A DNA stretch of 17,279 bases from Candidatus Hodarchaeum mangrovi (lineage in GTDB: Archaea; Asgardarchaeota; Heimdallarchaeia; Hodarchaeales; Hodarchaeaceae). The stretch is taken from positions 1 through 17,279 of the forward strand of contig JAEOUE010000267.1 of NCBI GenBank assembly GCA_016839515.1. Direction: 5' to 3'. This document shows, one piece after another, positions 1 to 17,279 of the stretch. A program made the position numbers and the translations under genes. Each line of letters starts with the position of its first letter. Within the stretch, counting starts at the first letter, position 1. The notes beneath the pieces are model-generated. The model was given only the letters and a program-made list of their open reading frames with translations. It made no database searches and had not been told where the DNA came from.

Positions 1-2
1 AG

Positions 3-935
3 ATGTATCAGAGTGAGCAGGAAAGAGCCTCTGTCGTTGCTTTAAAAGATACTATAGCTTTTTCATCCTCAATGATTGGTGTGATTTTTCCGCCATTAAT
101 TGCAGCTAATTTAGGTTGGGAAATTATGGGCATAATTTTTGGTCTAATTACAGTAATAACAATGTATCTTTCACTTTTAGGGACGAAAGAGCGCCCTGAG
201 TATCAAATTGATGACCCACTTCCCATTATGACTGCAATTAAGTCCATTTTCAAGAATAAACCGTTTATCTGGATCTCTTTGACCTATGCAATGATAGATT
301 TTAGTTTTGGTTTAACCATGCTCGTTTTTCCACTTTATGCCCGATTTACTCTCCATTTAGAAGAAGAAATGATAAGCTTAGCCATGGTGGGGATTGTTAT
401 AGGAATCCTTGCAAGTATCCTCTTTTGGAAACGCATGTATTCCCAGAAAGGACCAAAAGAAGGGTTAATGCTCGCAATGGCTATTTATGCAGTTGGTATT
501 CTTCCCTTTTTCCTTGTACGTGATATTATTCAAATGATTGTTGTCTCTTTGATACCTGGATTCGGAGTTGGAGGAATGTTAATGACCGAACCTGCTATTT
601 CAGCAGCTATAGATTATGATGAAATTCAGACTGGTAAAAGACAGGAAGGAGCATATTCAGGTATCTTGACCTTCATTGCACGGTTGAGTATTGTGTTAAC
701 AGGAATTGTATTAGTAATTATTCAGCTCTTTACAGGATTTCAAACAGGAAGTGAAATTCAGCCTGAAACTGCACAGGTAGGACTGTCACTATTAGTCTCT
801 ATAATTCCCAGTGTAGGGATCTTTATTGGCCTGTTATTCATTAAACTATATCCTTTAGATTTCAGACGATTTAAAGAGCAACAAATAGAATTAAAGAAAC
901 TACATGAAAAAAGAATAGAATTCTTAGAGCTCTAA
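3..935 (+). CDS. MFS glycoside-pentoside-hexuronide (GPH/MelB-like) cation symporter, 5'-truncated by window edge
   Basis: Multiple TM helices; 'ERASVVALK', 'SIFKNKPF', and the GPH signature 'IDYDEIQTGKRQEGAYSG'; C-terminal 'YPL'. Only 310 aa are visible, so the gene starts upstream of the window. Confidence 0.9.
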   Translation: MYQSEQERASVVALKDTIAFSSSMIGVIFPPLIAANLGWEIMGIIFGLITVITMYLSLLGTKERPEYQIDDPLPIMTAIKSIFKNKPFIWISLTYAMIDFSFGLTMLVFPLYARFTLHLEEEMISLAMVGIVIGILASILFWKRMYSQKGPKEGLMLAMAIYAVGILPFFLVRDIIQMIVVSLIPGFGVGGMLMTEPAISAAIDYDEIQTGKRQEGAYSGILTFIARLSIVLTGIVLVIIQLFTGFQTGSEIQPETAQVGLSLLVSIIPSVGIFIGLLFIKLYPLDFRRFKEQQIELKKLHEKRIEFLEL

Positions 936-956
936 ATCTTATTTCTAAGATTAATA

Positions 957-963
957 GGGTGAT
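957..963 (+). promoter_or_regulatory. Archaeal-type Shine-Dalgarno GGGTGAT for the GH38 gene
   Basis: GGGTGAT ends 3 nt before ATG 967; the same core recurs before four other genes. Confidence 0.7.
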
Positions 964-966
964 TGT

Positions 967-3795
967 ATGAATCAGAAATCTGAATCCCAAGTCTATACTG
1001 AAAAGAAAGTGTTCATTATTCCGCATACTCATTGGGATCGTGAATGGTATCTATCTTTCCAACAATTTCGTCATAAATTAGTAAAATTAGTAGATAATTT
1101 ATTAAAAATCTTGGAAACTGAAGAATATTATTTTACCTTTGATGGTCAAACTATTATTATAGATGATTACTTGGAAATCCGTCCTGAGAATAAAATACAA
1201 CTAATGAACCATATCAGAAATAGTAAAATTTCTGTAGGACCGTGGTATGTCCTTCCTGATGTTTGGTTAGCGAATCAGGAAAGTTTAATCCGCAACTTGG
1301 AATATAGTCAACAGATAGCTGATAAATATCAAATAGAGCAAATGAAAATCGGATATTTACCAGATACTTTTGGATTCTCTAATGTAATCCCCCAATTAAT
1401 TGGAGATCTAACTGATTTCAAAGCTATAATTGTATGGCGAGGGGTTCCACCCGAAATAAAGACTGTTCCCTTTTTATGGCGAAGTAATCCATTATCTGAA
1501 AAACCAGTATTCACTAATTATCTACCATTTGGATATGGTAATGCTGCATTACTTCCAGAGAATGTAAAAGAATTAGAACTTGAACTAAAATCATTAGTAA
1601 CTCAATTAGAACCTTTCTCGCCATTACCAATCTATCTCTTACTTCATGGTACCGATAACAAATTTCCTTCACCCTTTTTATGTAATACTCTGCCAAACAT
1701 AAAAATACAAAATATGTCCTTTCAATTATCCCTTCTTGGTAATTATATTGATACTCTTCTAAATATGATTAAAAAATCAAATTTTACACCTCCCGAATAT
1801 ATTGGTGAATTAAGATCTGCAGCTCGTGCTCATATTTTAGCAGATACCTATTCAACCAGAATGTGGATTAAACAATGGAATCAAAGAATTGAGGACCTTC
1901 TTACTCATTATACTGAACCTTTAAGCTTCTATAATTGGTTTTACTTCAAGAAAGAGTATCCATATTCGTTTTTAGAAGAAGCGTGGAAATGGCATTTACA
2001 GAATCAAGCACATGACTCAATTTGTGGATGTTCTATCGATCAAACGCATGAAGAAATGAAATTTCGATATTCTTGGGCTCAAACCATTGCAGAAACCGTG
2101 ATAGAAGATAATCTAAATTTTTTGGAAGAACAGGCGATAATATCAGGGGAAGACTCCATTATTGTATACAATCCTACAAATTGTTCTGATCTTCCGCTTC
2201 TTGTTGAATTTGCTGCTTCTGGAAAAAAAAATTATCACAGTATTATATCTTCAAATGGAGAGAGGTATAATTTACAAACCTTTCAAGATTCTCGTGAAAA
2301 ACTTTGGGAAATGACTGTTGGATCTTTAAAATTACGCGCATTGATGAGATTGTTACCTGGAAGAAAAATAATGACCTTTTATATTAATGAGCTATCATTT
2401 CTTGATAGTTCCAATCCCAAGATTTGTGAAGCTCGTTTAATTGTTGGAGAGAAACCTCTTGGAGATTTTAACATTGATCAAATGAAAGATAGCATTCTTT
2501 CACGTATACAAAGTGGAAAATATAGTCATTTTCACGTTATCGTTACAAAAGAGACGAAGACGAATTATATTACTCTAATTCCGTTACAAGCTTGGAGTTT
2601 TTCACAGCTAAAACTTATTGCAGATGATAATAATCCTGATAATAAAACCTTGATACAAATTTCCAAGGATAAGGTCTTTCACCCCTCCTATGAAGTATCA
2701 TTTCAGAAGGATGGATCATTCAGTTTATTTGATAAAGAATTGAACCTTCAATTCAGAAAATTACATTTCTTTGAAGATTGGGGCGATCGAGGAGATGAAT
2801 ATACATTTGGAAGAATCGGCCCAGAATCTGTAAGAATTTCAGCAGTGAAAAGAGAAGTGATACTCAAAGGACCTATCGTTTATGAGATTCAACAATCTTT
2901 GACTCTAAACCTCTTTCAAGAGGTTGATTCTTCTCGTGAAAAAAGAATTGGATCAGTAAAAATTCCTGTGACCAGTAAATTTAAATTTTATAATGATATT
3001 AAACGAATAGATATACAAACAACATTGATAAATAATGCCAAAGATCATCGCCTTAGAATTTGTTTTGATTTACCTTTTAATACTCAACACACCCATACAT
3101 CTACTCACTTTGGAACTATTGAACGTTTTGCTAGCCCAACTGGAGATGAAAGTTATTTAGAAGCCCCATCTGGCATACAACCACAAAAACGATTTATTAG
3201 GATTAATGATCCTAATAGTGAAGCTGCTTTCACTTTAATGAATTGGGGCCTTCCAGAAGTAGAATTAGTTAATGAGTCTGTTTTAGCGATGACATTACTT
3301 CGCTCCATCGGTTGGCTGGCTCAATCAAACTTCCCTGAAAGACCTGAATTAGCTGGTCCAGCTATTCCCACCCCTAATGCCCAAGAATTACATAAAGAAT
3401 ATGTATTTTTATATAGTATTCTAAGTCATACAAATCAGGAACCAATTTCTAAGAGTGCAGACCATTCAGAAGCATTTTCATTATTATCTAAAGTCATATA
3501 TTTAGAAAAGAGATTAATACCTAAAAAACTTTTTCAACCTCTGCTTAAAATCTCTGATCCCAGAATAAGGATTTCTTCACTCCGTGTACGGAAGAGTAGT
3601 ATATTAGTAACTTTATATAATCTCTATGAAGAAGAAATTATAGTTACAATTGAATGTGAAAGTAAAATCACAAGTATAAGTCAAATCCTCATAAATGGTT
3701 CTCTAAAAGAAAACCCTCTTAATGTACACCGTATATTGAAATTAAAATTTCATCCTAATGAGATTAAACTGATTTCACTTGAATTTAAAGAATAA
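967..3795 (+). CDS. Glycoside hydrolase family 38 alpha-mannosidase (MngB/mannosylglycerate hydrolase-like), cytoplasmic
   Basis: Zn-binding 'HTHWDREWY', 'DGQ', 'VGPWYVLPD', nucleophile motif 'GYLPDTFG', 'QAHDSICGCS', 'DRGDEY', 'KDHRLR', 'TLLRSIGWL'; no signal peptide; 31 bp downstream of the transporter. Confidence 0.95.
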   Translation: MNQKSESQVYTEKKVFIIPHTHWDREWYLSFQQFRHKLVKLVDNLLKILETEEYYFTFDGQTIIIDDYLEIRPENKIQLMNHIRNSKISVGPWYVLPDVWLANQESLIRNLEYSQQIADKYQIEQMKIGYLPDTFGFSNVIPQLIGDLTDFKAIIVWRGVPPEIKTVPFLWRSNPLSEKPVFTNYLPFGYGNAALLPENVKELELELKSLVTQLEPFSPLPIYLLLHGTDNKFPSPFLCNTLPNIKIQNMSFQLSLLGNYIDTLLNMIKKSNFTPPEYIGELRSAARAHILADTYSTRMWIKQWNQRIEDLLTHYTEPLSFYNWFYFKKEYPYSFLEEAWKWHLQNQAHDSICGCSIDQTHEEMKFRYSWAQTIAETVIEDNLNFLEEQAIISGEDSIIVYNPTNCSDLPLLVEFAASGKKNYHSIISSNGERYNLQTFQDSREKLWEMTVGSLKLRALMRLLPGRKIMTFYINELSFLDSSNPKICEARLIVGEKPLGDFNIDQMKDSILSRIQSGKYSHFHVIVTKETKTNYITLIPLQAWSFSQLKLIADDNNPDNKTLIQISKDKVFHPSYEVSFQKDGSFSLFDKELNLQFRKLHFFEDWGDRGDEYTFGRIGPESVRISAVKREVILKGPIVYEIQQSLTLNLFQEVDSSREKRIGSVKIPVTSKFKFYNDIKRIDIQTTLINNAKDHRLRICFDLPFNTQHTHTSTHFGTIERFASPTGDESYLEAPSGIQPQKRFIRINDPNSEAAFTLMNWGLPEVELVNESVLAMTLLRSIGWLAQSNFPERPELAGPAIPTPNAQELHKEYVFLYSILSHTNQEPISKSADHSEAFSLLSKVIYLEKRLIPKKLFQPLLKISDPRIRISSLRVRKSSILVTLYNLYEEEIIVTIECESKITSISQILINGSLKENPLNVHRILKLKFHPNEIKLISLEFKE

Positions 3796-3999
3796 TTTAT
3801 TTAATCTTCTTTACAATCTTCAGATTGATTCCAAATAGGATAATATATTCTTCTAAGAGTTTTCTGAATGATGAGATGTAATGATAGGAAAATTCAGGGA
3901 TTTTTAAGGATAAAACAGAATGTTAATCTAAATTTAAGGCTTCTTAATAAATTTTTTAAAGATTAAATATTCTACTAAGCTCAGTTAAAATTACTCGAA

Positions 4000-6006
4000 G
4001 TGGAGAAACTGACAGGGAAAAAAGAATTCATAATGATTTTTCTCATAATCCTATTCTTAAATATTTGTCAGCTCTCTACGGACGATCCTTCTTTCTATAA
4101 AACTAATGAAAAATCTGATTCTTTTTCTACAAATTTAACTATTCTTTCATCTCCTAGGCTTACGGGTAATGTTATTGAAGTTCCTGAGGATATAGACTCA
4201 GATGGAGATTATGATTTTCTAATTCTATCAATTGAGGTTGAAATTAGTGGTAATATTTATCAAGAGGAGATAATTGGAATCTTTGCTCAAGTTTTTACAA
4301 CAGTAGTATATGAAAGCAGGTTTTGTTATGACCTTGGGATAGGAATGAGTTGGGTGGATGTAAAAATCCCTGCACAAATATTGCATGAACAAGGTATTAA
4401 TCAATCTTACTCTATTAGAGTCTCATTACGTGATGGTAACTATGATATTTGTGATGAATTTATCTATACTACAGAATTTTACTCGTGGGAGGAATGGGAT
4501 CCTTTTGATATCAAACTTACTGGGAGATATTTTCATGAATGCGAGGATCTAGATGCAAATGGAAAATTTGATTCTGTGTTGTTTAAATTTGAAGTCTGTG
4601 TTTATGAGGTTGAATTAATTGAGATCACAGTGAGTTTTAAGGCATTTCTTGGCACTGACACATATATTATTAAGACATGGGACTACTCTTATTCTGATTA
4701 TTTAGATTTAGGTTTTCAAAATATAACTTTTACATTGAAGAATACTTTTGTTTGGACTTTACCAGCTGAAGCAGGTGTTTTTATTGATAATATTCAGATT
4801 TATTCTAAAATAGATGATTATTATTTTGATCAAAACATTCCTAACATTCATTATAATCTTCCATTCGTGTATGAATATGATCCTCCTCAGGTTTGGGTTG
4901 TGAAAATTACTAATGATTTTGGAGTGGATCTTAATAATGACGGGTTTTTTGAGGTATGGAGAGTAAATTTCAAGGTTAATGTCACTAAAAACAGCTTCTC
5001 CTTTAATTTATATGCTCAACTCACAGAGAGAGACCCTTTTATTTATATTACAGCTAGCTCGGTTTCTAAATCAAACCTTTCAAGAGGTTATCATACTATT
5101 TCTCTTGAATTTGATGGAAGAGCTCTCTACAAATCCAAATTCATTCAGAGTTGTGCTATTAGGTACTATTCAATCCGAGAGTTAAGCACTGGAGAATTGA
5201 TTGAAGAAAGTAATCAAAGACTAAATCTCAAAAGTAGCTACTCATGGATTCGTTTTTCCGAAACGCCTTGTAGAATGAAGATCGATAAGATCTCAAAATG
5301 TAATGAATCCTATCTTGTGAATAATAAATTGGAATTAATTGTGGAACTTAAAAAACTCTATAGTCAGAATATTGAACGTGGGTATCTAGTTGCATGTATC
5401 AATAGTCCTATTAATAAGAATACTATATTCGTCAAATTCTTTGATTTGAATTGTTTTCATACAGGATCAGAATTTGAAAAATGGAAATCTTCCTTTTACC
5501 TTGATTATCTTGGTTATTGGAATATTACACTAAAAATGTTTGGATCTCACAATGCATTTGAAACTAAAGTTATTTCTTTCGATGTTGAAGGTTCTCTCAT
5601 AATCAATCACACGCTTTCCAACTTCTTAATAACGCTAGGAAACCCACTGACTGTTACAGCAGTTACAACCAGCTATCATACAGAATTAATTAATTTTCAG
5701 CTATATGATCAAACTGAAAATTATTTCTTTCCTTTTGAACTTTATGAAACTAATGATGAATTCTCAACTTGGAAATTAACATATTATCCATCTATTCCTG
5801 CAAATCATTCATACACACTGATAGGGGAAGATACGTTAGGACAGAAATTTTTTTTGACTGATAATTTCATGGTAGAAGAATCTAATACCTATTTTACTGT
5901 ACAATCTAAAGAATCACCCATAGAAGCTAATCTCTTCTCTCGAATAGCTCTTTTTAGCATTATACTTCTTCTTATCCTAGTATTGAAGCTCAAAGAAAAG
6001 AAATAG
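4000..6006 (+). CDS. Membrane-anchored cell-surface (glyco)protein with three DxDxDG-type beta-rich repeats
   Basis: N-terminal signal-like 'KKEFIMIFLIILFLNIC'; C-terminal TM plus basic tail 'IALFSIILLLILVLKLKEKK'; repeats DIDSDGDYD, DLDANGKFD, DLNNDGFFE; 9 N-x-S/T sequons. Start is GTG 4000 (alternative ATG 4033). Confidence 0.8.
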   Translation: MEKLTGKKEFIMIFLIILFLNICQLSTDDPSFYKTNEKSDSFSTNLTILSSPRLTGNVIEVPEDIDSDGDYDFLILSIEVEISGNIYQEEIIGIFAQVFTTVVYESRFCYDLGIGMSWVDVKIPAQILHEQGINQSYSIRVSLRDGNYDICDEFIYTTEFYSWEEWDPFDIKLTGRYFHECEDLDANGKFDSVLFKFEVCVYEVELIEITVSFKAFLGTDTYIIKTWDYSYSDYLDLGFQNITFTLKNTFVWTLPAEAGVFIDNIQIYSKIDDYYFDQNIPNIHYNLPFVYEYDPPQVWVVKITNDFGVDLNNDGFFEVWRVNFKVNVTKNSFSFNLYAQLTERDPFIYITASSVSKSNLSRGYHTISLEFDGRALYKSKFIQSCAIRYYSIRELSTGELIEESNQRLNLKSSYSWIRFSETPCRMKIDKISKCNESYLVNNKLELIVELKKLYSQNIERGYLVACINSPINKNTIFVKFFDLNCFHTGSEFEKWKSSFYLDYLGYWNITLKMFGSHNAFETKVISFDVEGSLIINHTLSNFLITLGNPLTVTAVTTSYHTELINFQLYDQTENYFFPFELYETNDEFSTWKLTYYPSIPANHSYTLIGEDTLGQKFFLTDNFMVEESNTYFTVQSKESPIEANLFSRIALFSIILLLILVLKLKEKK

Positions 6007-6105
6007 AAAAAATGTTAATTTGTGATTATAGATCAGATATTAAAATTAACTATTCATTCCTTCGAAATTAAAACGCAGGCTAATATAGGCAAAATATGCT
6101 ACATT

Positions 6106-6112
6106 AGGTGAT
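6106..6112 (+). promoter_or_regulatory. Shine-Dalgarno AGGTGAT for the corrinoid protein
   Basis: The ORF-track GTG at 6108 lies inside this motif; an in-frame TTG follows at 6117. Confidence 0.65.
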
Positions 6113-6116
6113 TAAA

Positions 6117-6773
6117 TTGGCAATCGAGCAGCTTTACAAAACATTAAAAAATTCAATAGAAGAATTTAAACCAGAAGAGGCCAAGCAGGTAACTAAAAAA
6201 CTTTTGGAAGCCCAAATTGACCCCCTAAAAGTGTTAGACGATGTTTTAAACCCAACAATGGAGGAAATAGGAGAAAAATTCGATAGGATGGATATCTTTC
6301 TACCTGAACTCATGGGTGCCGCAGAAGCAATGCGAGCTGCCACCTCTGTCTTAACGGAACATATAAAGAAGAGTACTATAACCCCCACTGAAGTGAAGGG
6401 GAAAGTTGTACTAGGAACAGTATCTGGAGATATACATGAAATCGGGAAAAATATAGTTAAGATTATGCTAGAAGTTTCAGGTTTCGAAGTCCTAGATTTA
6501 GGAAAAGATGTTCCTTCACTCAAATTTATTGAAAAAGCTGAAGAAGTAAATGCAGATGTAATAGCTCTATCAGCACTCATGACAACTACAATGCATTCTC
6601 AAAGAGAAGTGATTGAACTATTAGAAGCCTTAGGAAAACGAAATAAATATCTGGTTATAATTGGGGGGAATCCAACCACTGATAACTGGCGGAAAGAGAT
6701 AGGAGCTGATGGATGGGCTGAAACTGCAGTTGGAGCAGCAAAGCTTGTTGTAAAAATGATTCAGGAAAGGTGA
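6117..6773 (+). CDS. mtmC: Methyltransferase cognate corrinoid protein (MtmC/MttC/MtbC family)
   Basis: Cap motif 'MEEIGEKFDRMDIFLPELMGAAEAM', B12-binding DxHxxG 'GDIHEIGKNIV', 'DLGKDVP', 'SALMTTT', 'IIGG', 'IGADGWAE'; directly upstream of the MtmB homologue. Start moved to TTG 6117 on SD position (ORF track: 6108). Confidence 0.92.
   Translation: MAIEQLYKTLKNSIEEFKPEEAKQVTKKLLEAQIDPLKVLDDVLNPTMEEIGEKFDRMDIFLPELMGAAEAMRAATSVLTEHIKKSTITPTEVKGKVVLGTVSGDIHEIGKNIVKIMLEVSGFEVLDLGKDVPSLKFIEKAEEVNADVIALSALMTTTMHSQREVIELLEALGKRNKYLVIIGGNPTTDNWRKEIGADGWAETAVGAAKLVVKMIQER
6768..6773 (+). promoter_or_regulatory. Shine-Dalgarno AGGTGA overlapping the corrinoid-gene TGA stop (translational coupling)
   Basis: AGGTGA-gacaa-ATG(6779). 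Confidence 0.7.
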
Positions 6774-6778
6774 GACAA

Positions 6779-8164
6779 ATGGGAACCCCTCCTTGGCGAA
6801 TCAATGAAGTATTGGACAGAGCACAAAATGGACCTATCTGTTTAGAAAAGGATTTTGATTTTAAGTTTTTAGTCCCTGAACTCCAAAGAGTTATTAAAGA
6901 ATATGATATTTGTTTTGATCCGTTAACTCCTATCCCTTCTGATGATACACTTGCAGATAATCTTTGGAAAGCTGCTTTGGACTTTTATCTTACTGTAGGA
7001 ACTCTTTGTACTGATACTTATCGTAGAATTAAATTTACAGAGAATGAAATAAAAGAAGCATTAGGAAATTTCCCTGGAAAGTATATCTTGGGTTTTGGAC
7101 GCGACGCAAGGGAAATCACAAGTAGAAAAGTCGAAGATACACGAAGGCCTTTTTGCCTTTTTTCACCAGATATTACATGTGACGAAGATTTATTTATTCC
7201 CATGAGTATGGCATATTTACAGGAACCCTTAGCTGATGGGGTTTGTGCTCCAATTCTTGATGAGATTGAGGGTATGCCAATACGTTCTGGTTCACCAACC
7301 GAAGTTAAAGGATCTGTCGCCCATGCAATGATGTTTCGAGAAGCAGCAAGACGAGTTGGTCGTCCAGGGATTTTTCTTAAAAGTGTTGGAACTGCAGAAT
7401 CTGCTGCTGCTCAAATTGCGGCCAGTAATCCTGAATGGGGAGAAAGATTAACTGATGGACGATTTGTAGCTAGTATTTCAGAACTAAAGGTGAATAATTC
7501 TCTATTGAATAAAATGGTACATTTTCATACTTATGGTTGTTTTGTAGGAGCATTAATGGGTCCGATTCTAGGAGGATATTCTGGGGGACCTGAAGGAACG
7601 GCGATTGTGGGACTTGCTTATCATTTACAAGGATTACTCGTAAATCAGGCCCACTTTTTAAATTATTTTCCATTTCATTTGAAACATACATGTAATACCA
7701 TGAGAGAGCTTCTTTGGGTTATTTCTATGACTTATCAATCTTTAGCTCGGAATAGTAACCTAATTTCCCTTTCAAATGGATTTACTGCAGCAGGACCGTG
7801 TACCCCTATGGTATTAAGAGAGGCTGCAGCTCATGCACTTGTAAGTGTTGTCTCTGGTTCAAATCTTTGGGAAATAGCTGTAGCAAAGAACAGACATAAG
7901 AATTATGCCACACCCATGGAAGCTAGAATGGCCTGTGAAGTTGGTTGCGGTGCTGCTAAAGAAAGAATTACAAGAAACGATGCAAATGAAATAACTTTAA
8001 CACTTTTAAAATCTTATGAAAAAGATATAGAAACAGCTCCACTTGGAAAAAGTTTCCGTGAATGTTATGATATACGAAAGGTTAAACCTTCTCCAGATTA
8101 TACCGAGCTCTTCAATACAATTCGCAACGAACTTATAGATTTAGGTGTTCCATTCATATATTAA
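6779..8164 (+). CDS. mtmB: Monomethylamine:corrinoid methyltransferase (MtmB) family protein, pyrrolysine-free
   Basis: MtmB-like segments throughout: 'PIPSDDTLADNLWKA', 'CTDTYRRIKFTENEI', 'VGRPG', 'ELKV', 'PILGGYSGGPEGT', 'AGPCT', 'TPMEARM', 'APLGKSFRECYD...ELIDLGVPF'; 461 aa from ATG 6779; no in-frame TAG. The symbol denotes the family; the substrate is uncertain. Confidence 0.92.
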   Translation: MGTPPWRINEVLDRAQNGPICLEKDFDFKFLVPELQRVIKEYDICFDPLTPIPSDDTLADNLWKAALDFYLTVGTLCTDTYRRIKFTENEIKEALGNFPGKYILGFGRDAREITSRKVEDTRRPFCLFSPDITCDEDLFIPMSMAYLQEPLADGVCAPILDEIEGMPIRSGSPTEVKGSVAHAMMFREAARRVGRPGIFLKSVGTAESAAAQIAASNPEWGERLTDGRFVASISELKVNNSLLNKMVHFHTYGCFVGALMGPILGGYSGGPEGTAIVGLAYHLQGLLVNQAHFLNYFPFHLKHTCNTMRELLWVISMTYQSLARNSNLISLSNGFTAAGPCTPMVLREAAAHALVSVVSGSNLWEIAVAKNRHKNYATPMEARMACEVGCGAAKERITRNDANEITLTLLKSYEKDIETAPLGKSFRECYDIRKVKPSPDYTELFNTIRNELIDLGVPFIY

Positions 8165-8199
8165 TTTACCTCACTTCCCACATTTACTTGCTCTGGCCG

Positions 8200-8868
8200 T
8201 TATTTCATTCGATAAGAACATTGAACTGTTTTACAGTATATACATCGATTTTCCCATCGGGATTGTCTAATATTCTCAGCTATATTTATTGCAAATGAAA
8301 TTGACTTGATTGGAACCATTAAATAGCCACTAGTCAGGTGAACTTCAATTTTATGAGCAGGAAGTAGTTTAAAAATTAATTCCTGATCTCTTAAATCCCA
8401 ATTACAATAACCGGGACTATAACGTCTCGAACACTCAAATGGAGATCTTTTTGTTAATTTATGTATCTCAGAATCTACTATATCAGCGAGATATTCAACC
8501 CCCGCAGAACCAATTGCATCCAATATGACTCCATCTAAATATTTGCCTAAAACCATCAAATTATTAACTTCTTCAGGTAGAGCTTTACCTAAAGTTACAA
8601 TTACTAATGCTACTTTTTTAACTTCTTCGAAACATTCGCGAGCGGGGAGGTCTGATCGATTAAAAATACTATATATGGATTTTGGTTGAAATAAAAATTG
8701 AGCTTTTTGTTTTAATTTATCCAACCGACTGAAAAATTCCTTCTTACTAGCTTTCCCCGCTAAAAGAGGGGATCCATTCCTTTTAGTAAGATAATTAAGT
8801 ATATCTTGATCTTGTATATTGCATAATTGATAGATTTTTTGATAATACATCGTTTGGACATGTTCCAT
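8200..8868 (-). CDS. Stand-alone vitamin B12-dependent methionine synthase activation (SAM-binding reactivation) domain protein
   Basis: 'VTLGKAL', 'ILDAIGSAGVEYLAD', 'RYSPGYCNWDLRDQ', 'HLTSGYLMVPIKSIS', C-terminal 'CIYCKTVQCSYR'. Start is 8868 or ATG 8850. Confidence 0.88.
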   Translation of the reverse strand: MEHVQTMYYQKIYQLCNIQDQDILNYLTKRNGSPLLAGKASKKEFFSRLDKLKQKAQFLFQPKSIYSIFNRSDLPARECFEEVKKVALVIVTLGKALPEEVNNLMVLGKYLDGVILDAIGSAGVEYLADIVDSEIHKLTKRSPFECSRRYSPGYCNWDLRDQELIFKLLPAHKIEVHLTSGYLMVPIKSISFAINIAENIRQSRWENRCIYCKTVQCSYRMK

Positions 8869-8946
8869 CTAGACTGATTAAACTTGCATGATCGAAAGAC
8901 AATGTAAAAAACAGTGAGGAAATTCCTAACTAGTCTAGTATAAAGC

Positions 8947-8958
8947 AATTTATAAATT
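8947..8958. promoter_or_regulatory. Palindromic TATA-like element AATTTATAAATT in the divergent intergenic region
   Basis: Perfect 12-bp palindrome reading TTTATAAA on both strands, between divergent starts at 8868 and 9025. Confidence 0.35.
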
Positions 8959-9024
8959 TTAGTGAAATATTACCCTAAGAGAGTTTTTAATTTATTTAAA
9001 AAAATTTATAGAAGAGTAAATTAG

Positions 9025-10302
9025 ATGTTAGAAGACCTTCTAGAATCATTTATTCCACTTTTCCTTTTGATTTGTGTTAATCTAGCAGTTATATTCCGCA
9101 GGATTGGAAAACTGAAAGTTCCTGCATGGACTGCCTTTATGATTGCTGCGCTAATCTTAATTCTGCTTCAACCAGGCGCTTATGAAAGGGCTGTCATAGT
9201 TATCGGAAAACAGGTTCATGTTTTAATCTTCCTTTTTGGAATGTTTGTCTTGGTCACTGCTTTAGATATTAGCGGATCCTTGGAGGAACGGGGAAAATCA
9301 CTCCTCTTAAAAGGAAAATCACCTAAAGGATTACTACTTTTAATCCATTTCGGTTTAGGTCTCGCTGCAAGCTTACTTGTGAACGACACAGTGGCAATTA
9401 TTGGTCCCATCTTATTAATTGCCTTTACAAAGCAGGTACGTAAATACCCAAAGCCGTATATCCTAGCAATCTGTTATGCATTAACTTTTGGGTCAGCATT
9501 ATTACCAACAGGGAATCCTCAAAATTATATTCTAGCTATTGCAGGAGGTATTAGCTTTTTAGAATTTGGGATTTGGGCTCTTTTCCCTACCTTTTTTTCT
9601 CTCTTTGGAAGTTATGTCCTCTTAAAGTATCTGCTTAAATCTGAGTTCAACGAAATTAAATTTCCTATTATCCCAGCCATTGCAGAAAAACATGAATTAG
9701 AATCTTTACAAAGACCTTCAGAAGGTTTTTTTGTGGTTCTAATAATTGGTTTAATTCTCTCCTCCTTTATTACTCAAATTTCAATTACTCTAATAATTCT
9801 TCTTATTACAGGGATTTTCTTATTTATTGTAAATGAAAGAGACCAAATACTAGAGAAACTCAATTGGGAGGTCATCCTCTTTTTCATGGGTATGTTTGTA
9901 GTCTTAGATGCTGTTGTGTCTTCCAATCTCTTTGTAAATACTATTTCCCCTTTTCTCAATCAATTAGAATTCAATTTTACAAGCTTTGTAATCTTTATAC
10001 TAATTATATTTCTTCTTTGTCAGGTATTATCAAATGTTCCAGTAGCCATTCTCATTACAGGAATACTACCTGGAACTCCGTTAGATCACCCCATATTTTG
10101 GATGACCGCAGCTTTAACTACTACATTTGCGGGAGCAACTACTGTTATAGGAGCAGCTAGCAATATTATTGTCATTGATACAGCAGCTGAACGTGGTGTT
10201 GAAATTACCTGGTGGGACTTCACGAAGTTTGGTATCCCAATCTCAATTCTGAGTCTAATTCCAATTCTTATGATTGGATTATTATTTTTTATTTTGGGTT
10301 AA
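9025..10302 (+). CDS. ArsB/NhaD (IT superfamily; SLC13/CitMHS/YbiR-like) anion permease
   Basis: About 11-12 TM segments; 'FLFGMFV', 'LLVNDTVA', 'FGSALLPTGNPQN', 'NWEVILFFMGMFVV', 'LSNVP', 'FAGATTVIGAASNIIV', 'ITWWDFTKFG'. Confidence 0.9.
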   Translation: MLEDLLESFIPLFLLICVNLAVIFRRIGKLKVPAWTAFMIAALILILLQPGAYERAVIVIGKQVHVLIFLFGMFVLVTALDISGSLEERGKSLLLKGKSPKGLLLLIHFGLGLAASLLVNDTVAIIGPILLIAFTKQVRKYPKPYILAICYALTFGSALLPTGNPQNYILAIAGGISFLEFGIWALFPTFFSLFGSYVLLKYLLKSEFNEIKFPIIPAIAEKHELESLQRPSEGFFVVLIIGLILSSFITQISITLIILLITGIFLFIVNERDQILEKLNWEVILFFMGMFVVLDAVVSSNLFVNTISPFLNQLEFNFTSFVIFILIIFLLCQVLSNVPVAILITGILPGTPLDHPIFWMTAALTTTFAGATTVIGAASNIIVIDTAAERGVEITWWDFTKFGIPISILSLIPILMIGLLFFILG

Positions 10303-11801
10303 TCTAATCTTGAACTAGGAAAAATGAGGGCATTTTCAATAAATAATGCTAAATCCTTTCTTAACTTTACCAGAGATGGAGGGTGGAGATACATCATATG
10401 ACCTGCTTCATAATATGCCATTATGATATTTTTTCGCAATCCCGAATCCAATCCAAGATGATTAAACGTATATTTGGTTGCCAAAAAAGGTGTTGCAAGA
10501 TCGTAATATCCATTTCCTACAAAGACCTTTAAAAATGGGTTCTTACTCATCGCATCCCTTAGAGTTTCTGCTACATTCAAATACTGATTATGATAATCTT
10601 CATATTTCCAAGTTTTATAGATTGGACTAAGTATTTCATAAGGCAAATCATTTTGATAATTTAACTCTGTAAATACGTAATGATTGAAGGTTGCAGTGTA
10701 TGGACCTTGTATCGCTGAATAACTTGGATCATATTCAGGTTCTGCATTACTGTCATCTCTTTCAATACCTAAATATCTAGTATCTAATCTACCTACTGTT
10801 CGATGTTTCTTCCGCAATAGTTCTTTACAAAACTTATAGATATTGATTCTAAGATTTACTCCTGCTATATATTCACGGGATAAACCCGTTAAGTCTGCTA
10901 ATCTTTCAAGTATTTGTACTCGTTCTTCTTTGGGTATAGTATCTCCTTTCATTAATGCTAATGTATATTCTTTTAAAGTAAATGAAGTAACTTCCTCTAT
11001 TGTTTTTTGTAAGTCCTTCTGTCTTTCAGGAGATAATAATTTATGGTACCAAGCAGTTGCAGTATAAGTTGGTAAAAATAGGATGTATGGAAGATCATTC
11101 CCTGGATTGAAACGAGCTGTTTGGAAGTTTAAAATAGAAGAAATAAGCATAATCCCATTTAAAAACATACCTAGATCATCTTGTAGGACCCCTGATAGAC
11201 CAGCTGCGCGTGTAGTTCCATAGCTCTCTCCAATTAAAAATTTTGGTGAAGCCCAGCGTTTTGAACGAGAAGTAAATAGTCGAATGAACTCTGCAACAGA
11301 TTTCAGGTCTTTCTTATATTCATGAAATTGTGTGTTCTTTTCTCCTGGTACAGCCCGTGAAAAACCAGTACTGACTGGATCAATGAATACCAAGTCTGTT
11401 AAATCTAATAGCGAATAATTATTATCTACAAGTCTATAAGGAGGATTGACTGGTTTTTCATTTGCTTCAGCAATAACTCTTCTAGGTCCTAATACTCCTA
11501 AATGCAACCATACAGATGAGGATCCAGGACCTCCATTGAAAGAAAAGGTAATTGGTCGTTTCGAAATATCAGAAATACCATCTCTTATATAGGCAATATA
11601 AAAGATAGATGCTTTGGGTTTTGGTTCCTTTCCTTCTTCCTCTTCCTTAATAAGAAGAGTACCAACTTGAGCGGTGTAATCGATTTCCTGTCCATCGATT
11701 ATTACTCTATGAGTAGTTGTAACCAATTCCTCTTTAGGAATTTTTGGTTTTTCTATATCCTCTTTTTTCTCTTTGGAATTGCTTTTTTCATCGTCAGTCA
11801 T
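10299..11801 (-). CDS. Peptidase S10 serine carboxypeptidase
   Basis: 'FNGGPGSSS', 'FIDPVSTGFS', catalytic Ser 'GESYG', Asp 'GYYDLATP', His 'YEAGHMMY'; no signal peptide; stop overlaps the permease stop (TTAA 10299-10302). Confidence 0.95.
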   Translation of the reverse strand: MTDDEKSNSKEKKEDIEKPKIPKEELVTTTHRVIIDGQEIDYTAQVGTLLIKEEEEGKEPKPKASIFYIAYIRDGISDISKRPITFSFNGGPGSSSVWLHLGVLGPRRVIAEANEKPVNPPYRLVDNNYSLLDLTDLVFIDPVSTGFSRAVPGEKNTQFHEYKKDLKSVAEFIRLFTSRSKRWASPKFLIGESYGTTRAAGLSGVLQDDLGMFLNGIMLISSILNFQTARFNPGNDLPYILFLPTYTATAWYHKLLSPERQKDLQKTIEEVTSFTLKEYTLALMKGDTIPKEERVQILERLADLTGLSREYIAGVNLRINIYKFCKELLRKKHRTVGRLDTRYLGIERDDSNAEPEYDPSYSAIQGPYTATFNHYVFTELNYQNDLPYEILSPIYKTWKYEDYHNQYLNVAETLRDAMSKNPFLKVFVGNGYYDLATPFLATKYTFNHLGLDSGLRKNIIMAYYEAGHMMYLHPPSLVKLRKDLALFIENALIFPSSRLD

Positions 11802-11820
11802 TATTCTCAGGGCCTCGTTA

Positions 11821-13035
11821 TCATTCTTCCAAATTTAATTCGTTTTTAACTACTTCCCATTTTTCATGATGAATTATTAACGTTTTGATCTGGTGAACAT
11901 TTATTTTGGATCCAATAAGGATTGCTCCTTGAATTTTACCCTCTTTAAAGAATAATTTTTGATAAATCCTTTGTTGAAAGTCACGAATGATCCCCTTCTC
12001 CTCAATTCCAGGTCCTAGTTCAATATCGCCAATCGAAGTAAGATCTATTCCAGCAATCTTAAGGGTTGTCCAAGGAAGCGTTCCCGTATATGGTACCCTC
12101 GTTCCTAAAATGTTTATTGCAGCAATCTTAGCTTGATCGACTGCAGTGGGAATAATACCAAATTTTGAACCAGGAAAAGAGTCAATATTCACAGCATCCC
12201 CTGCTGCATAAACATCAGGAATATTTGTTTGCATAAAAGGATTGACAACAATTGCATATTCTCCAATAGTAATTCCTGCATCTCTGGGGAGAGTATTATC
12301 ATTCCGAACACCAGTAGCATTACAGAGAAAATCACATTCGTGAGTCCATAATCCTGAATGATCCCGTAGTTCGATTTTCACTTCCTCATCATTCTTTCGG
12401 ATTATCTGCTCACTTATTGTATTGAATATAAAACTTGTATCAAAGGTTTTATCAAGTAAACGATTTAAAAATTGACCCCCTTCAGGGTCTAATTGCTTTC
12501 TTAGAAGATATGGAGACCTATCAATTATGGTTGGTTGGATATCTATGTCAGATAATGTCTTTGCTAACTCTACGGACAAAAGACCTCCACCTAGAATCGT
12601 GGCTTTTCCCGTAGTACTCCTTTCTGCTTTTTCTCGAATAGCGAGAGCATCATCAATATTTCTTAAACAATATAGAGGACCATCACGAATACCTGGAATC
12701 GGAGGAATAAATGGTTTTGACCCAGTGGCTATCAAAAGTTTATCATATTTTAATTCTGACTTGTCTGCGCATATAATTGATTTTTTTTGACAACGAATTT
12801 TAATAACACAATGACCAAGAAGGAGGTTAATGTTATTTTTATCATACCAATTTTCGGGGTATCTAAAAATTTGAGAGGGACTTTTACCCAAAATTATCTT
12901 GTAAATTGATGGACGAGGATAAGGGGGAAAGCGATCCTCACTCACCATAGTGATGTCAATCTCATCTGAATTTTGCCGCATAATACTGGCAGCATTTATT
13001 CCTGCATGGCCAGTTCCGATGATAATGACATGCAC
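11821..13035 (-). CDS. FAD/NAD(P)-dependent oxidoreductase (NADH:rubredoxin reductase / NirB N-terminal-like)
   Basis: 'IIGTGHAG', 'PYPRP', 'YDKLLIATGS', 'LRNIDDA', 'ILGGGLLSVE', 'ATGVR', 'TNIPDVYAAGD', 'TTLKIAGIDLTSIG'; GTG start with AGGTGAT at 13042-13048. Confidence 0.9.
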   Translation of the reverse strand: MHVIIIGTGHAGINAASIMRQNSDEIDITMVSEDRFPPYPRPSIYKIILGKSPSQIFRYPENWYDKNNINLLLGHCVIKIRCQKKSIICADKSELKYDKLLIATGSKPFIPPIPGIRDGPLYCLRNIDDALAIREKAERSTTGKATILGGGLLSVELAKTLSDIDIQPTIIDRSPYLLRKQLDPEGGQFLNRLLDKTFDTSFIFNTISEQIIRKNDEEVKIELRDHSGLWTHECDFLCNATGVRNDNTLPRDAGITIGEYAIVVNPFMQTNIPDVYAAGDAVNIDSFPGSKFGIIPTAVDQAKIAAINILGTRVPYTGTLPWTTLKIAGIDLTSIGDIELGPGIEEKGIIRDFQQRIYQKLFFKEGKIQGAILIGSKINVHQIKTLIIHHEKWEVVKNELNLEE

Positions 13036-13229
13036 TTATTCATCACCTTGTTATCTAGAGTTTTGAACCTCAAATGACCAATTATCTTGTAATTTCTAAT
13101 CTTTTTTTACTAAAAAGTATTCAACTATTGATTGGGTATTGTCTTACGAAATTATTAGATTCTGGATTTTTCTAATTTCCCAATATTAAAAACTATCAAG
13201 TAAGAGACTACTTTCGAGAAACTGCCGCT

Positions 13230-13250
13230 AAAAAAAAGTATAACAAAAAA
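13230..13250 (-). terminator. Possible archaeal oligo-T terminator
   Basis: Minus strand reads TTTTTTGTTATACTTTTTTTT about 110 nt downstream of the wHTH gene stop; the AT-rich background weakens the call. Confidence 0.3.
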
Positions 13251-13356
13251 GTTTAATCTAGAAATAGCATAATCTAAAAATATTGATGAAGATTATTTCT
13301 TACAAGATTTATTATTAAATGTTCAAAAACTAAATTATGAAAAATTTTTGAAATTT

Positions 13357-13872
13357 TTAATTATTAAAATCAATCTCTTCATCCTTACGCTGATAAAGAG
13401 AATAAAACCGTACAAACGAATAAATTGTACCTAACAGAGCGTTGGCAAATAATAGAGTAAGCATTGGTTCCCACATTTTTAATAGAAAAAATAAAAGAGC
13501 AAGTGATAAAGAAGAAGCGCTAAAAGCAAGGATAAAGGCTTCTTTAGGTAAATATTTTCCTTTTAAAACAAAAAATTCTTCATATGAACCAAGAGGGAGT
13601 AATTCTGATACTTGATATCTATTATCAGCTGTTTTTTTCACTAAATTGTAGGATTCTAATTTTTTAAGGTGGTAAGCTGCAATAGAAACACTACTAAAAT
13701 TGAGTCTCTGGTATATTTCCCGAACACCAAAATCCTGATCTTTCCCTCTTGCAAGTAATAGATATACTTGTAAAGTTTTCCCTTTAATCTCTCTGCGTAA
13801 GTCCTCGATTTCTATATTTCCTAGTGCTATAGTTCCATCAATAGTATCTAAAACGTCTGTTTTAGTATTCAC
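13357..13872 (-). CDS. Winged helix-turn-helix protein with two C-terminal TM helices (membrane-anchored regulator)
   Basis: 'GKTLQVYLLL...GVREIYQRLNFSSVSIAAYHLKKLESYNLVKK...YQV' wHTH pattern, followed by hydrophobic 'AFILAFSASSLSLALLFFLL' and 'MLTLLFANALLGTIYSFV'. Confidence 0.82.
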   Translation of the reverse strand: MNTKTDVLDTIDGTIALGNIEIEDLRREIKGKTLQVYLLLARGKDQDFGVREIYQRLNFSSVSIAAYHLKKLESYNLVKKTADNRYQVSELLPLGSYEEFFVLKGKYLPKEAFILAFSASSLSLALLFFLLKMWEPMLTLLFANALLGTIYSFVRFYSLYQRKDEEIDFNN

Positions 13873-13897
13873 AGAGAACGCCTTTTATCTTTCTATT

Positions 13898-14737
13898 CTA
13901 TAAATTAGTTGTATTGATATTTTTTATATGGGTTTTCACATAATCGCTGAATGTTTGATGAAATTCATTGAAGTTTTCATTAAACTCCATATAATGGGTT
14001 ATTCCTGAACTAAATACTGTAAATTCATCACCATAAGCTGTCCATTCATAGGGAATATACTTAGTATATTCTAACCATCCATCCTTATGTGCATCAATAA
14101 CAATGGATGTATGATTCTCAAAAGTAAGAGTAATAGATAATACCCACTGATCAGGAACAATAAAATCTGCTTTACTACCCTCCATCTCAGTATCTGGATT
14201 TTTTTCATACCCTAAAGTAGAAAAATTAATTGATGGCATTTTACTGGCATAAAAAATCAATTCACTAAACAGCATCACTTCAAACACAATATAAGTATCA
14301 TGAACATATATAGGAGGATTATCTGTTGCATATGTTGTACATACATTCCATTGATTATATTGGCGTCCTGGAAAAGGAGTAATTCTCCATGTTGTACAAT
14401 TATCTGGGAAATTCTCCTTTTCTGGATGAGCGGGAGAATTCCTAAAGAACCAAACAGCAACCAGAAAAGGATCTGAATAGTTAAGATATGAACTATTGAA
14501 TTCCCTGTAAGCAATTTGAAGAGAATTAATTGGAAAAAGAAAACTTGAGATATTATGAAAACTAAAACTAATATCATATATTCGATCGGGGAAATCATAA
14601 ATTGATTCGATAGGCTTTGGAAAAAAATAGTCCGTTAAGAGAAGTGGAGTGATAAAAATACCACCAAAAGTCAGAAAGCCGGTCAGCATAATCCCATAGA
14701 AAGTATTTTTATACATTTTACTCATTTTGCTCATCAT
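13898..14737 (-). CDS. Hypothetical N-terminally anchored extracellular protein
   Basis: 279-aa ORF; basic N-terminus plus one hydrophobic helix 'FYGIMLTGFLTFGGIFITPLLL'; 7 N-x-S/T sequons; no family recognised. Confidence 0.7.
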   Translation of the reverse strand: MMSKMSKMYKNTFYGIMLTGFLTFGGIFITPLLLTDYFFPKPIESIYDFPDRIYDISFSFHNISSFLFPINSLQIAYREFNSSYLNYSDPFLVAVWFFRNSPAHPEKENFPDNCTTWRITPFPGRQYNQWNVCTTYATDNPPIYVHDTYIVFEVMLFSELIFYASKMPSINFSTLGYEKNPDTEMEGSKADFIVPDQWVLSITLTFENHTSIVIDAHKDGWLEYTKYIPYEWTAYGDEFTVFSSGITHYMEFNENFNEFHQTFSDYVKTHIKNINTTNL

Positions 14738-14883
14738 TTATTAATGAAATTTCAAGGAATTTAATCCTATACTTAGAACAGATGATGTTCGAATATTAGT
14801 ACATACAATAATTCAATAATAAACAAATAATATCAAATTATTTTTTATTTTTACAACATATCCTCAATTTAGACGGTCAAACC

Positions 14884-14910
14884 ATTCATTAATAATGGTG
14901 ATTAATGAAT
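14884..14910. repeat. Perfect 10-bp inverted repeat ATTCATTAAT-N7-ATTAATGAAT
   Basis: Read directly from the sequence; intergenic between ogt and the 14737 start. Confidence 0.6.
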
Positions 14911-15046
14911 CAATCTTTACTTATCTTTATATTTAGGAATTTCCAATGAAGATTGAATCTTGATCTAAAATTAATTAACTAATAAAAAGAATTAGTCTTT
15001 AGAGGAATCAAGAATCTACTTATTTTTACTCTTAAAGGCTTTAAAT

Positions 15047-15532
15047 CTAGAAATATTTATGGAGAGTATTTTTTTCATGATTCAATAGCCATTGCTTCCT
15101 CCAAATTCCACCACGGTAGCCTGTGAGCTTGCCATTACTCCCAATCACCCGATGGCAAGGGATGATTATTGGAAGTTTGTTCATAGCATTAGCATTACCG
15201 ACAGCACGATTAGCCTTAGGTAAGTCAATACTTTGAGCTATCTGAGCATAGGATCGTACCTTTCCGTGTTTAATCTTACTTACTTCTTTCCAAACTTTTT
15301 TTTGAAATTCTGTACCATTAAGCTCGAATGGTACAGTAAATTCTTTTCTAGCTCCTTGAAAATATTCATTCAGCTGTGTTATACACTCAGCTATGATTGG
15401 TAACTCAGATTTTGCATTAAGATCTATCTCCTCATCATCAATATATCTTAGGCTGATTAGTACATTATTTTTAACCCTAATCTCAATGATACCAATTGGC
15501 GAATTATAATAAACCTTTTCTATCTTATTCAT
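15047..15532 (-). CDS. ogt: Methylated-DNA--[protein]-cysteine S-methyltransferase
   Basis: 'SPIG', 'QLNEYFQG', 'GTEFQKKVW', 'RAVGNA', active site 'IIPCHRVIG', 'LTGYRGG...KQWLL'. Confidence 0.96.
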   Translation of the reverse strand: MNKIEKVYYNSPIGIIEIRVKNNVLISLRYIDDEEIDLNAKSELPIIAECITQLNEYFQGARKEFTVPFELNGTEFQKKVWKEVSKIKHGKVRSYAQIAQSIDLPKANRAVGNANAMNKLPIIIPCHRVIGSNGKLTGYRGGIWRKQWLLNHEKNTLHKYF

Positions 15533-16115: not shown

Positions 16116-16142
16116 AATTCAACCTTATTTTTGAAACCTTAA

Positions 16143-16164
16143 GTTTTTTATGCTGTTTTTTATG
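16143..16164 (-). repeat. Perfect 10-bp direct repeat CATAAAAAAC-AG-CATAAAAAAC upstream of adaA
   Basis: Plus strand GTTTTTTATG at 16143-16152 and 16155-16164. Confidence 0.55.
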
Positions 16165-16270
16165 AAAGGAATTCTAAGTTTTATCTTTAGGTTGAGATTA
16201 TTTCCAAGAAAAAAATAATCAAAATTTTTACCATATAGGATTTCTACTAAAATGCCTTAATTATCAATTT

Positions 16271-17278: not shown

Positions 17279-17279
17279 C

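Follow-up and report, generated by a model that had tools for sequence, protein, structure and literature searches.

A gene pair at positions 6108-8164 of a 17,279-nucleotide stretch of DNA from the Asgard archaeon Candidatus Hodarchaeum mangrovi (contig JAEOUE010000267.1, positions 1 to 17,279; the whole of this stretch is hereafter called the window) is predicted from its sequence to form a pyrrolysine-independent, corrinoid-dependent methyl-transfer module. Its methyltransferase, MT1, is a non-pyrrolysine member of the superfamily of the monomethylamine methyltransferase MtmB, and it falls within a distinct and strongly conserved clade of 129 sequences with an invariant His182/Arg228/Leu259 set of its own. 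The substrate of MT1 is very probably not monomethylamine. The reading that we tentatively prefer, although we give it somewhat less than an even chance, is that MT1 takes its methyl group from an N-methylated amino acid, the anionic group of which Arg228 would hold; methylated histidine is the sharpest candidate. It is doubtful whether the clade as a whole transfers methyl groups to corrinoid from methylhistidine, or more broadly from N-methyl amino acids, without pyrrolysine. The two genes of the module are as follows.

6108-6773, + strand: cognate corrinoid protein of 221 aa, with a B12-binding_2 cap and a B12-binding Rossmann domain
6779-8164, + strand: non-pyrrolysine MtmB-superfamily methyltransferase (MT1), 461 aa from ATG 6779, with a PF05369 match

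The longest open reading frame (ORF) over MT1 opens at GTG 6770 on the + strand and ends at 8164. Residues were numbered from ATG 6779, because all close homologs are 461 aa long and start at the residue encoded there; this gives the same numbers as an earlier sequence-only reading of the window (K201, R228, F229 and L259), which are correct with this start. MT1 matched the Pfam family PF05369 (MtmB) end to end, over profile positions 3-449 of 450, at 326.5 bits (cut-off 25; E-value 3.5e-97). The corrinoid protein matched PF02310 (E-value 5.4e-27) and PF02607 (E-value 1.1e-18), carries the DxHxxG motif in the form 'GDIHEIG', and scored 209.1 bits against the NCBIfam model TIGR02370, 'methyltransferase cognate corrinoid protein', slightly below the cut-off of 215.3. 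Because its TGA stop codon lies only 5 nt ahead of the MT1 ATG, the two genes look translationally coupled. Near-identical copies of the stretch are present in marine sediment, sediment and soil metagenomes from seven studies. As well, a 221-nt contig from an RNA library (metatranscriptome) matches 7961-8181 exactly and covers the 3' end of MT1 together with 17 nt beyond its stop codon, and a second RNA run gave no match; the 221-nt match is a weak hint of MT1 expression and no proof of transcription.

When MT1 was compared with all PDB sequences by phmmer, only Methanosarcina barkeri MtmB was matched (1TV2_A, E-value 1.5e-69; 1L2Q_A, E-value 8.8e-69), and the printed alignment pairs 14-462 of the query with 12-458 of the chain. 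Positions 7454-7573 translate to DGRFVASISELKVNNSLLNKMVHFHTYGCFVGALMGPILG, which reads DGRFVASISELK...GALMGPILG. In the alignment, 'tdgrfvasiselk' of MT1 stands opposite 'tdshevsqlnelk' of MtmB, and 'galmgpilggy' opposite 'imdeqmpifggy', and there are no gaps at either place. The residues of MT1 at the positions in question are listed below.

7322-7324, + strand: His182, where MtmB has Glu ('svahamm' opposite 'aktetrl')
7379-7381, + strand: Lys201 (AAA), at the position of pyrrolysine 202 of MtmB (X202 in 1L2Q, printed as K in 1TV2)
7454-7465, + strand: Asp226-Gly-Arg228-Phe229, in which Arg228-Phe229 replaces His228-Glu229 of MtmB and Asp226 is kept across the superfamily; the Phe229 codon, TTT at 7463-7465, aligns with MtmB Glu229
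7553-7555, + strand: Leu259 (TTA), which replaces MtmB Glu259
7592-7597, + strand: Glu272-Gly273 ('ggpegt' opposite 'ggieet'), in which Glu272 is kept and MtmB Glu273 has become Gly

The sequence-only reading had set Phe229 and Leu259, by way of Methanosarcina strings, against two glutamates of MtmB. Both codons lie where it had put them, those strings agree with the PDB sequence, the alignment is free of gaps as supposed, and a Glu retained at 229 or 259, which was looked for in the PDB alignment as the case against that reading, was not there, the residues being Phe and Leu. It had also noted that the Glu of a 'GPET' segment is Gly in MT1, and the loss holds for Glu273, although the segment given was slightly off, the PDB sequence being 'ggieet' with Glu272 kept in MT1. 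The alignment of Lys201 with pyrrolysine itself goes beyond what had been noted.

Since Lys, Phe, Leu, Arg and Gly stand at the positions of Pyl202, Glu229, Glu259, His228 and Glu273, respectively, MT1 is not an MtmB in the strict sense: the codon at the Pyl202 position is AAA, there is no in-frame UAG, and both acidic residues of MtmB proper, Glu229 and Glu259, are gone. These two glutamates are taken here, following the sequence-only reading, to be catalytic in MtmB; no mention of such a role was found in the literature searched, including the passages of PMC9842639 and PMC2933860 that were available. The superfamily itself was surveyed by an exhaustive profile-free search, which gave 990 clusters at 50% identity (E-value <= 1e-3) with extreme diversity at the pocket positions. 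Because Glu occupies the 229 position in just 4 of 150 superfamily representatives and the 259 position in 12 of them, the Glu losses belong to the general non-pyrrolysine state of the MtmB superfamily and are not peculiar to MT1.

The close relatives were first collected by a word-indexed homolog search, which returned 743 matches. The best 120 of these (56-100% identity) come from records of Hodarchaeota/Hodarchaeales, Heimdall-, Odin- and Thorarchaeota, Promethearchaeota, Bathyarchaeia, [Eubacterium] cellulosolvens and Anaerolineae, and within these 120 both Arg228 and Leu259 are found without exception (120/120 each) and Phe229 in 107. The substitutions in MT1 are thus fixed features, not noise. 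Genomes and metagenomes were further scanned with family-specific patterns from a 50-sequence family alignment: 104 relatives were confirmed among 185,579 species genomes, of which 77 loci were kept, and the metagenomes gave 221 further confirmed relatives, of which 80 were kept. The identity of the kept relatives to MT1 is 77-87% in Asgard archaea, 63-75% in Bathyarchaeia, 55-60% in Hadarchaeum, 52-56% in Anaerolineae/Chloroflexota and about 40% in Thermoplasmata, while single relatives were recorded by the species-genome scan in Neomarinimicrobiota, Vicinamibacterales, Acidoferrum and Nitrososphaerales; the Asgard and Bathyarchaeia members share 70-87% identity.

A FastTree phylogeny of 224 sequences placed MT1 in an Asgard clade (n = 31), the sister of which is a Bathyarchaeia-type clade (n = 54), and both lie inside the 129-sequence clade (support 0.94). 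Throughout this clade His182, Arg228 and Leu259 are each invariant (129/129), as is Gly273 (129/129), and Glu272 is missing from one member only (128/129), while position 229 holds Phe in 103 of the 129, Leu in 22, Met in three and Ala in one. Position 201 is another matter, being Lys in 30/31 members of the Asgard clade, Gln in 54/54 of the sister clade, and elsewhere Gln (15), Val (15), Cys (5) and others. Thus, of the basic pocket that had been proposed from Lys201 and Arg228, the arginine stands and the lysine, which varies between Lys, Gln, Val and Cys, is not a conserved feature. Outside the clade, 31 neighbouring paralogs, the genes of which often lie a few kb off within the same genomes, have Asn182 in 30/31 and Arg228 in 0/31, and in 125 full-length superfamily representatives position 182 is most often Glu (63), paired with His228 in 20 of those 63. 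An MtmB-like Glu/His pair at 182 and 228 is accordingly matched by a His/Arg pair in the clade, which hints that the two positions may be coupled.

Several observations on these relatives can be added. The commonest residues at position 201, Lys (AAR) and Gln (CAR), are one base from TAG via AAG and CAG, MT1 itself having AAA, which may be coincidental or may reflect an amber codon in an ancestor. No pyrrolysine-bearing relative was found among the family relatives examined: a Borrarchaeum-type match flagged with '1 TAG' as a pyrrolysine relative shows no in-frame TAG on translation, and three short database fragments near the pyrrolysine position (P0159, P0184 and P0196) have no TAG-like break at their start or end. 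In many Asgard genomes of the same genus a second MtmB-family paralog is found 1-4 kb from the ortholog, often in divergent orientation (L037-L056, e.g. G064:C1:2254470-2258288); it is 44-48% identical, and has Asn182, His at position 201 and no Arg228. A single MtmB-family gene was found in the Candidatus Hodarchaeum mangrovi genome, the assembly of which is 91% complete. Finally, ten representatives that are MtmB-like around the pyrrolysine site were considered as a stand-in for MtqB, the non-pyrrolysine MtmB homolog discussed below, but are only about 25-45% identical to one another, and none could be selected.

An AlphaFold2 model of MT1, built on a 146-sequence alignment, has a mean predicted local distance difference test (pLDDT) score of 96.6 and a predicted template modelling (pTM) score of 0.94. 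By Foldseek, the model matches 1L2Q, 1TV2 and 1NTH with a template modelling (TM) score of 0.95, a root-mean-square deviation of 1.5 A and 31% identity, and the next matches after MtmB are MttB and MtgB (PDB 2QNE and 9YCE; TM 0.47-0.55, 10-14% identity). The predicted TIM-barrel fold of MT1 can therefore be superposed on that of solved MtmB. In the model, Lys201 closes strand 199-201, Arg228 and Phe229 lie within strand 227-231, and Leu259 is near the end of strand 255-260; Pyl202 of MtmB is likewise described as anchored to a strand inside the barrel, according to the available passages of PMC9842639.

In the mechanism that we propose, MT1, the TIM-barrel protein, would bind a methylated small molecule and methylate the Co(I) corrinoid carried by the 221-aa protein. 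The resulting methyl-Co(III) would be unloaded by a second methyltransferase with its gene at another place in the genome; candidates are the URO-D-type proteins, the stand-alone pterin-binding protein and the homocysteine S-methyltransferase. A RamA/RACo-type activase would re-reduce the oxidised corrinoid, and the methyl groups collected in this way could pass to a pterin carrier or to homocysteine. The invariant Arg228, together with His182, would hold a carboxylate or otherwise polarise the substrate. Should the substrate be a methylated histidine, its demethylation would yield L-histidine, which could enter the Hut (histidine degradation) pathway. The amine methyltransferases without pyrrolysine that have been characterised so far act on a permanently charged nitrogen, that is, on quaternary amines. 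By our own chemical reasoning, a protonated ring-N-methyl imidazolium leaves as a neutral imidazole and therefore would not need activation by pyrrolysine, while an N-alpha-methyl secondary amine should be harder to activate.

The gene neighbourhoods of the relatives bear on this proposal. ORFs were called in 157 related loci and clustered, and cluster representatives were annotated with Pfam; 125 of these loci have at least three neighbours, and the counts of genes beside the family gene refer to these.

Corrinoid protein: 94/125 loci
RamA/RACo: 7/125 loci
URO-D-type second methyltransferase (MT2): 6/125 loci
MtrH: 6/125 loci
MTTB homolog: 8/125 loci
Any amino-acid-type neighbour: 45/125 loci
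Liv-type ATP-binding cassette transporter components: 10/125 loci
Amino-acid permease: 8/125 loci
Aminotransferase: 16/125 loci
Enolase-superfamily protein: 9/125 loci

Taken together, the neighbouring genes point weakly to N-methylated amino acids, and the N-methyl amino acids and betaines that had been suggested in the sequence-only reading fit some of these neighbourhoods, if only weakly. A more specific link is that to the Hut genes. In one Anaerolineae locus (L101), the gene order is corrinoid protein, MT1, urocanase and histidine ammonia-lyase, and MT1 and urocanase are 22 nt apart; in another (L100), histidine ammonia-lyase comes 15 nt after MT1. At seven Bathyarchaeia-type loci (L082, L151, L161, L166, L167, L198 and L199), the enzymes of which are 93-100% identical to each other, a complete HutH-HutU-HutI-glutamate formiminotransferase run is divergent from an operon of the paralog, the corrinoid protein and MT1. 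Because the Hut-linked enzymes of Anaerolineae and Bathyarchaeia share only 56% identity and their genes are arranged differently, the Hut associations in the two lineages are taken as independent, and methylated histidine is the sharpest lead because two independent lineages place the enzyme beside Hut genes. By a rough estimate (four Hut genes among about 3000, in a ten-gene window), the probability of such an adjacency by chance would be about 1% in each lineage. Compared with MT1, the Hut-linked enzyme of Bathyarchaeia is 72-73% identical and differs at 4 of the 43 strand-end positions compared (K201Q, M260T, T336A and I366M).

Two further features recur mostly in Bathyarchaeia-type loci. 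An 'AIR synthase-like' gene upstream of the family gene in 21/125 loci proved to be a thiamine-phosphate kinase (254 bits against an NCBIfam cut-off of 184), and was set aside as a neighbour that probably reflects lineage synteny and not function. In another set of these loci (L070, L073, L080, L152, L158-L160, L168, L169, L173, L178, L180 and L214), MT1 is followed by a conserved trio, namely a protein of about 120-140 aa and one of about 550 aa, both without a Pfam match, and then a radical SAM/SPASM protein.

The genome of Candidatus Hodarchaeum mangrovi itself (4.0 Mb in 348 contigs, 6% contamination) holds accessory genes that the proposed module would call for. One RACo-type activase, four URO-D-family genes, one of them adjoining a further corrinoid protein, and one stand-alone pterin-binding protein (Pterin_bind) were found in it, and no MtrH was found in the search of this genome. 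On one contig (G000:C122, L219) a corrinoid protein, a stand-alone homocysteine S-methyltransferase domain protein and a non-pyrrolysine MTTB homolog stand in a row, and on another (G000:C118, L005) a URO-D-like protein adjoins another corrinoid protein; these split MetH-like modules suggest that methylated compounds supply methionine synthesis. Urocanase and HutH are also present, on a contig other than that of MT1. The rest of the window holds the following features.

3-6006, upstream: MFS_2 (glycoside/hexuronide-type) transporter, GH38 alpha-mannosidase, and a 668-aa protein without a Pfam match
8200-8868, - strand: 222-aa ORF with a Cys-rich C-terminus; PF02965 (MetH reactivation domain) at 22.9 bits, below the cut-off of 25
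9025-10302: CitMHS permease
10299-11801, downstream: family S10 serine carboxypeptidase
15047-16115, - strand: pair of an Ada-type regulator (Ada Zn-binding domain and AraC helix-turn-helix) and an Ogt methyltransferase, 7 kb from MT1

The 222-aa ORF, for which there was no NCBIfam match, might be an S-adenosylmethionine-dependent corrinoid reactivation module. The same Ada/Ogt pair is found directly between the MtmB ortholog and its paralog in four same-genus loci (L042, L044, L046 and L047) and nearby in a fifth (L038), and may reflect synteny within the lineage or else a regulator of the cluster that senses methylation. The S10 serine carboxypeptidases are a family better known from eukaryotes.

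A number of points weigh against an N-methylated amino acid, and against methylated histidine in particular. The neighbourhoods are heterogeneous among the 125 loci, and the amino-acid-type neighbours are common genes; the count of 45/125 may be near chance. Hut genes adjoin the family gene in just 9/125 loci, from two lineages, and no Hut neighbour was seen in any Asgard-clade locus among the related loci examined. In the Bathyarchaeia Hut loci, moreover, the paralogous MT1 could be the Hut-related enzyme. Urocanase was found in 0/5 of the Sif/Borr-type Asgard genomes with an ortholog of 83-84% identity, two of which are listed as 100% complete; co-occurrence with urocanase is otherwise uninformative, because 282/400 Asgard genomes contain it. 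At these Sif/Borr loci the gene is flanked by an enolase-superfamily protein, a cupin, a class-V aminotransferase and a thiamine pyrophosphate (TPP) enzyme, and the best scores of the enolase-superfamily neighbour, though below cut-offs, are with acid-sugar dehydratases rather than amino-acid racemases. Within the window, the 222-aa ORF and the CitMHS permease recur together only in one metagenome contig of 95% identity, and are thus uninformative. The model raises points of its own: His182 sits within a predicted helix (173-192), Arg228 and Phe229 are adjacent on one predicted strand and so cannot both point the same way, and a single pocket shared by Arg228, His182, Lys201, Phe229 and Leu259 remains putative. 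Finally, to our knowledge, a secondary or tertiary amine donor in the absence of pyrrolysine has no precedent.

Among the alternatives, a genuine monomethylamine:corrinoid methyltransferase working without pyrrolysine is the one suggested by the database names, since NCBI calls the homologs 'monomethylamine:corrinoid methyltransferase', and the warning in the sequence-only reading about an automatic 'methylamine utilisation' annotation was apt. The Lys at the pyrrolysine position does retain an amine-bearing side chain, and small monomethylamine activity is described for MtqB in passages of PMC13044021. We nevertheless hold this to be very improbable, as Pyl202, Glu229, Glu259 and Glu273 are all substituted, Lys201 varies within the family, and the hosts are non-methanogens, the genome at hand having a single MtmB-family gene; rare monomethylamine methyltransferase homologs without the amber codon were already noted by Rother and Krzycki, and methylamine chemistry is not expected of them in the available part of PMC2933860. 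The earlier claim of a new substrate other than monomethylamine thus fits the loss of pyrrolysine and of three acidic residues, that expectation and the precedent of MtqB, while the newness of the substrate itself is only inferred. The precedent leads to another possibility, that MT1 is an MtqB-like enzyme demethylating quaternary amines such as tetramethylammonium and choline. According to Kashyap et al. (2026), MtqB of Methanococcoides methylutens Q3c, a non-pyrrolysine MtmB, demethylates tetramethylammonium (QMA) and choline with only trace activity on monomethylamine, its function was called the first for any non-pyrrolysine MtmB, and non-pyrrolysine MtmBs occur across Asgard archaea, mostly without known function (PMC13044021, available passages). 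Quaternary amines need no pyrrolysine, as holds for all characterised pyrrolysine-free amine methyltransferases, and MTTB-family homologs, the known members of which use quaternary amines, lie near the family gene at the 8/125 loci listed above. Against this, the pocket of MtqB is described in the same passages as rich in sulfur-containing and aromatic residues, with conserved Met and Cys, in place of the invariant His182/Arg228/Leu259 seen here, and two positive residues would be an odd way to hold a bare cation. No BCCT-type choline/betaine transporter was found among the annotated neighbours of the related loci, and Methanosarcinales account for 0/77 of the kept loci (104 relatives in 185,579 genomes), which, the patterns being family-specific, argues only against close orthology. 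An MtqB-like activity is accordingly regarded as unlikely.

An acidic S- or O-methyl donor, such as dimethylsulfoniopropionate, methylmercaptopropionate, methoxylated aromatic acids or a methylated sugar acid, has a similarly small likelihood in our view. A site lined by Arg, His and Lys would be expected to suit any carboxylate-bearing donor, a sulfonium should, on chemical grounds, need no pyrrolysine, and the presence of the stretch in marine sediment, sediment and soil metagenomes is in keeping with such compounds; the Sif/Borr gene lying between an acid-sugar-dehydratase-like enolase-superfamily protein (below cut-off) and a TPP enzyme, and the MFS_2 transporter and GH38 mannosidase upstream of MT1, point the same way. 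However, no recurrent sulfur- or aromatic-specific gene was found among the annotated neighbours of the related loci, alkyl methyl ethers are poor leaving groups, and the sole pathway-specific linkage found is to histidine degradation. It is also conceivable, yet highly unlikely, that the module works in the biosynthetic direction, with a methyl-corrinoid loaded from methyl-tetrahydrofolate methylating a metabolite, or that MT1 has a non-catalytic or sensor role. The split MetH-like modules of the genome (homocysteine S-methyltransferase plus corrinoid protein, and a stand-alone pterin-binding protein), the weak match to the MetH activation domain adjoining MT1 (22.9 bits, cut-off 25) and the Ada/Ogt pair between both paralogs in four related loci could be read in this sense, but the recurrent neighbours are transporters and catabolic genes (Hut, aminotransferases) and not biosynthetic clusters, and the characterised MT1 enzymes named in the available passages of PMC13044021 and PMC9842639 all act as demethylases. 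An N-methylated amino acid, with methylated histidine foremost, is the donor that we continue to prefer, at the tentative strength given at the outset.

The existence of non-pyrrolysine MtmB homologs, also in Asgard archaea, is already known, and the loss of the glutamates by itself is no discovery, being part of the known non-pyrrolysine state. In a dichloromethane fermenter, for instance, strong induction of another non-pyrrolysine MtmB-family protein was reported (PMC9768040, in the part available). What is new here is the definition of a large conserved clade, marked by His182/Arg228/Leu259, to which the Asgard genes belong, the finding that Lys201 is not conserved, and the Hut linkage as a pathway-specific lead; no link between corrinoid methyltransferases and methylhistidine or hercynine was found in the literature searched. 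The clade is strongly conserved, and its members come from uncultured anaerobes of at least five phylum-level groups. If the enzyme uses a donor other than monomethylamine, reconstructions of methylamine use in Asgard archaea that rely on such genes would be wrong on that point; Sun et al. (2021), for example, counted a Sifarchaeia 'MtmB' towards methylamine use (PMC9723677, available passages), and the ortholog at the Sifarchaeum locus from the species-genome scan is 83% identical to MT1. If, furthermore, methylhistidine is the substrate, this would be the first anaerobic B12-dependent demethylation route for methylated amino acids, which would supply a one-carbon (C1) unit for C1 and methionine metabolism together with a free amino acid, histidine, that would go on to the Hut pathway. 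Such a route would be widespread among uncultured archaea of sediments, the Asgard archaea among them, in which the gene has been taken as a marker of methylamine use, and with N-methyl amino acids or methylhistidine the anaerobic C1 metabolism of sediments would gain a new class of methyl donor.

Among known systems, MtmB of M. barkeri (1L2Q, 1NTH and 1TV2) is the closest solved one, and shares with MT1 the PF05369 family, the length, the TIM-barrel fold and the pairing with a cognate corrinoid protein, and with the MT1 clade also Asp226, Glu272 and the C-terminal 'ECYD' segment. Unlike MtmB, MT1 has Lys in place of Pyl202, Arg228, Phe229, Leu259 and Gly273, and His182 for the aligned Glu, and its host, judged by homolog names, is a non-methanogenic Asgard archaeon. 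MtqB resembles MT1 in being a non-pyrrolysine MtmB-superfamily member with an adjoining corrinoid protein, and is the sole one with a demonstrated function in the available passages of PMC13044021; it differs, compared by its published description only, in being a methanogen protein with a Met/Cys/aromatic pocket where His182/Arg228/Leu259 are found here, whereas the hosts of the MT1 clade are Asgard archaea, Bathyarchaeia, Hadarchaeum and Anaerolineae. The non-pyrrolysine MttB superfamily, exemplified by the glycine betaine enzyme MtgB, belongs to a superfamily separate from that of MT1, as also reflected in the low Foldseek TM scores (0.47-0.55), but offers the same picture of a pyrrolysine-free relative that was retargeted to another substrate and works with a corrinoid protein, an MT2 and RamA, as described in passages of PMC13044021.

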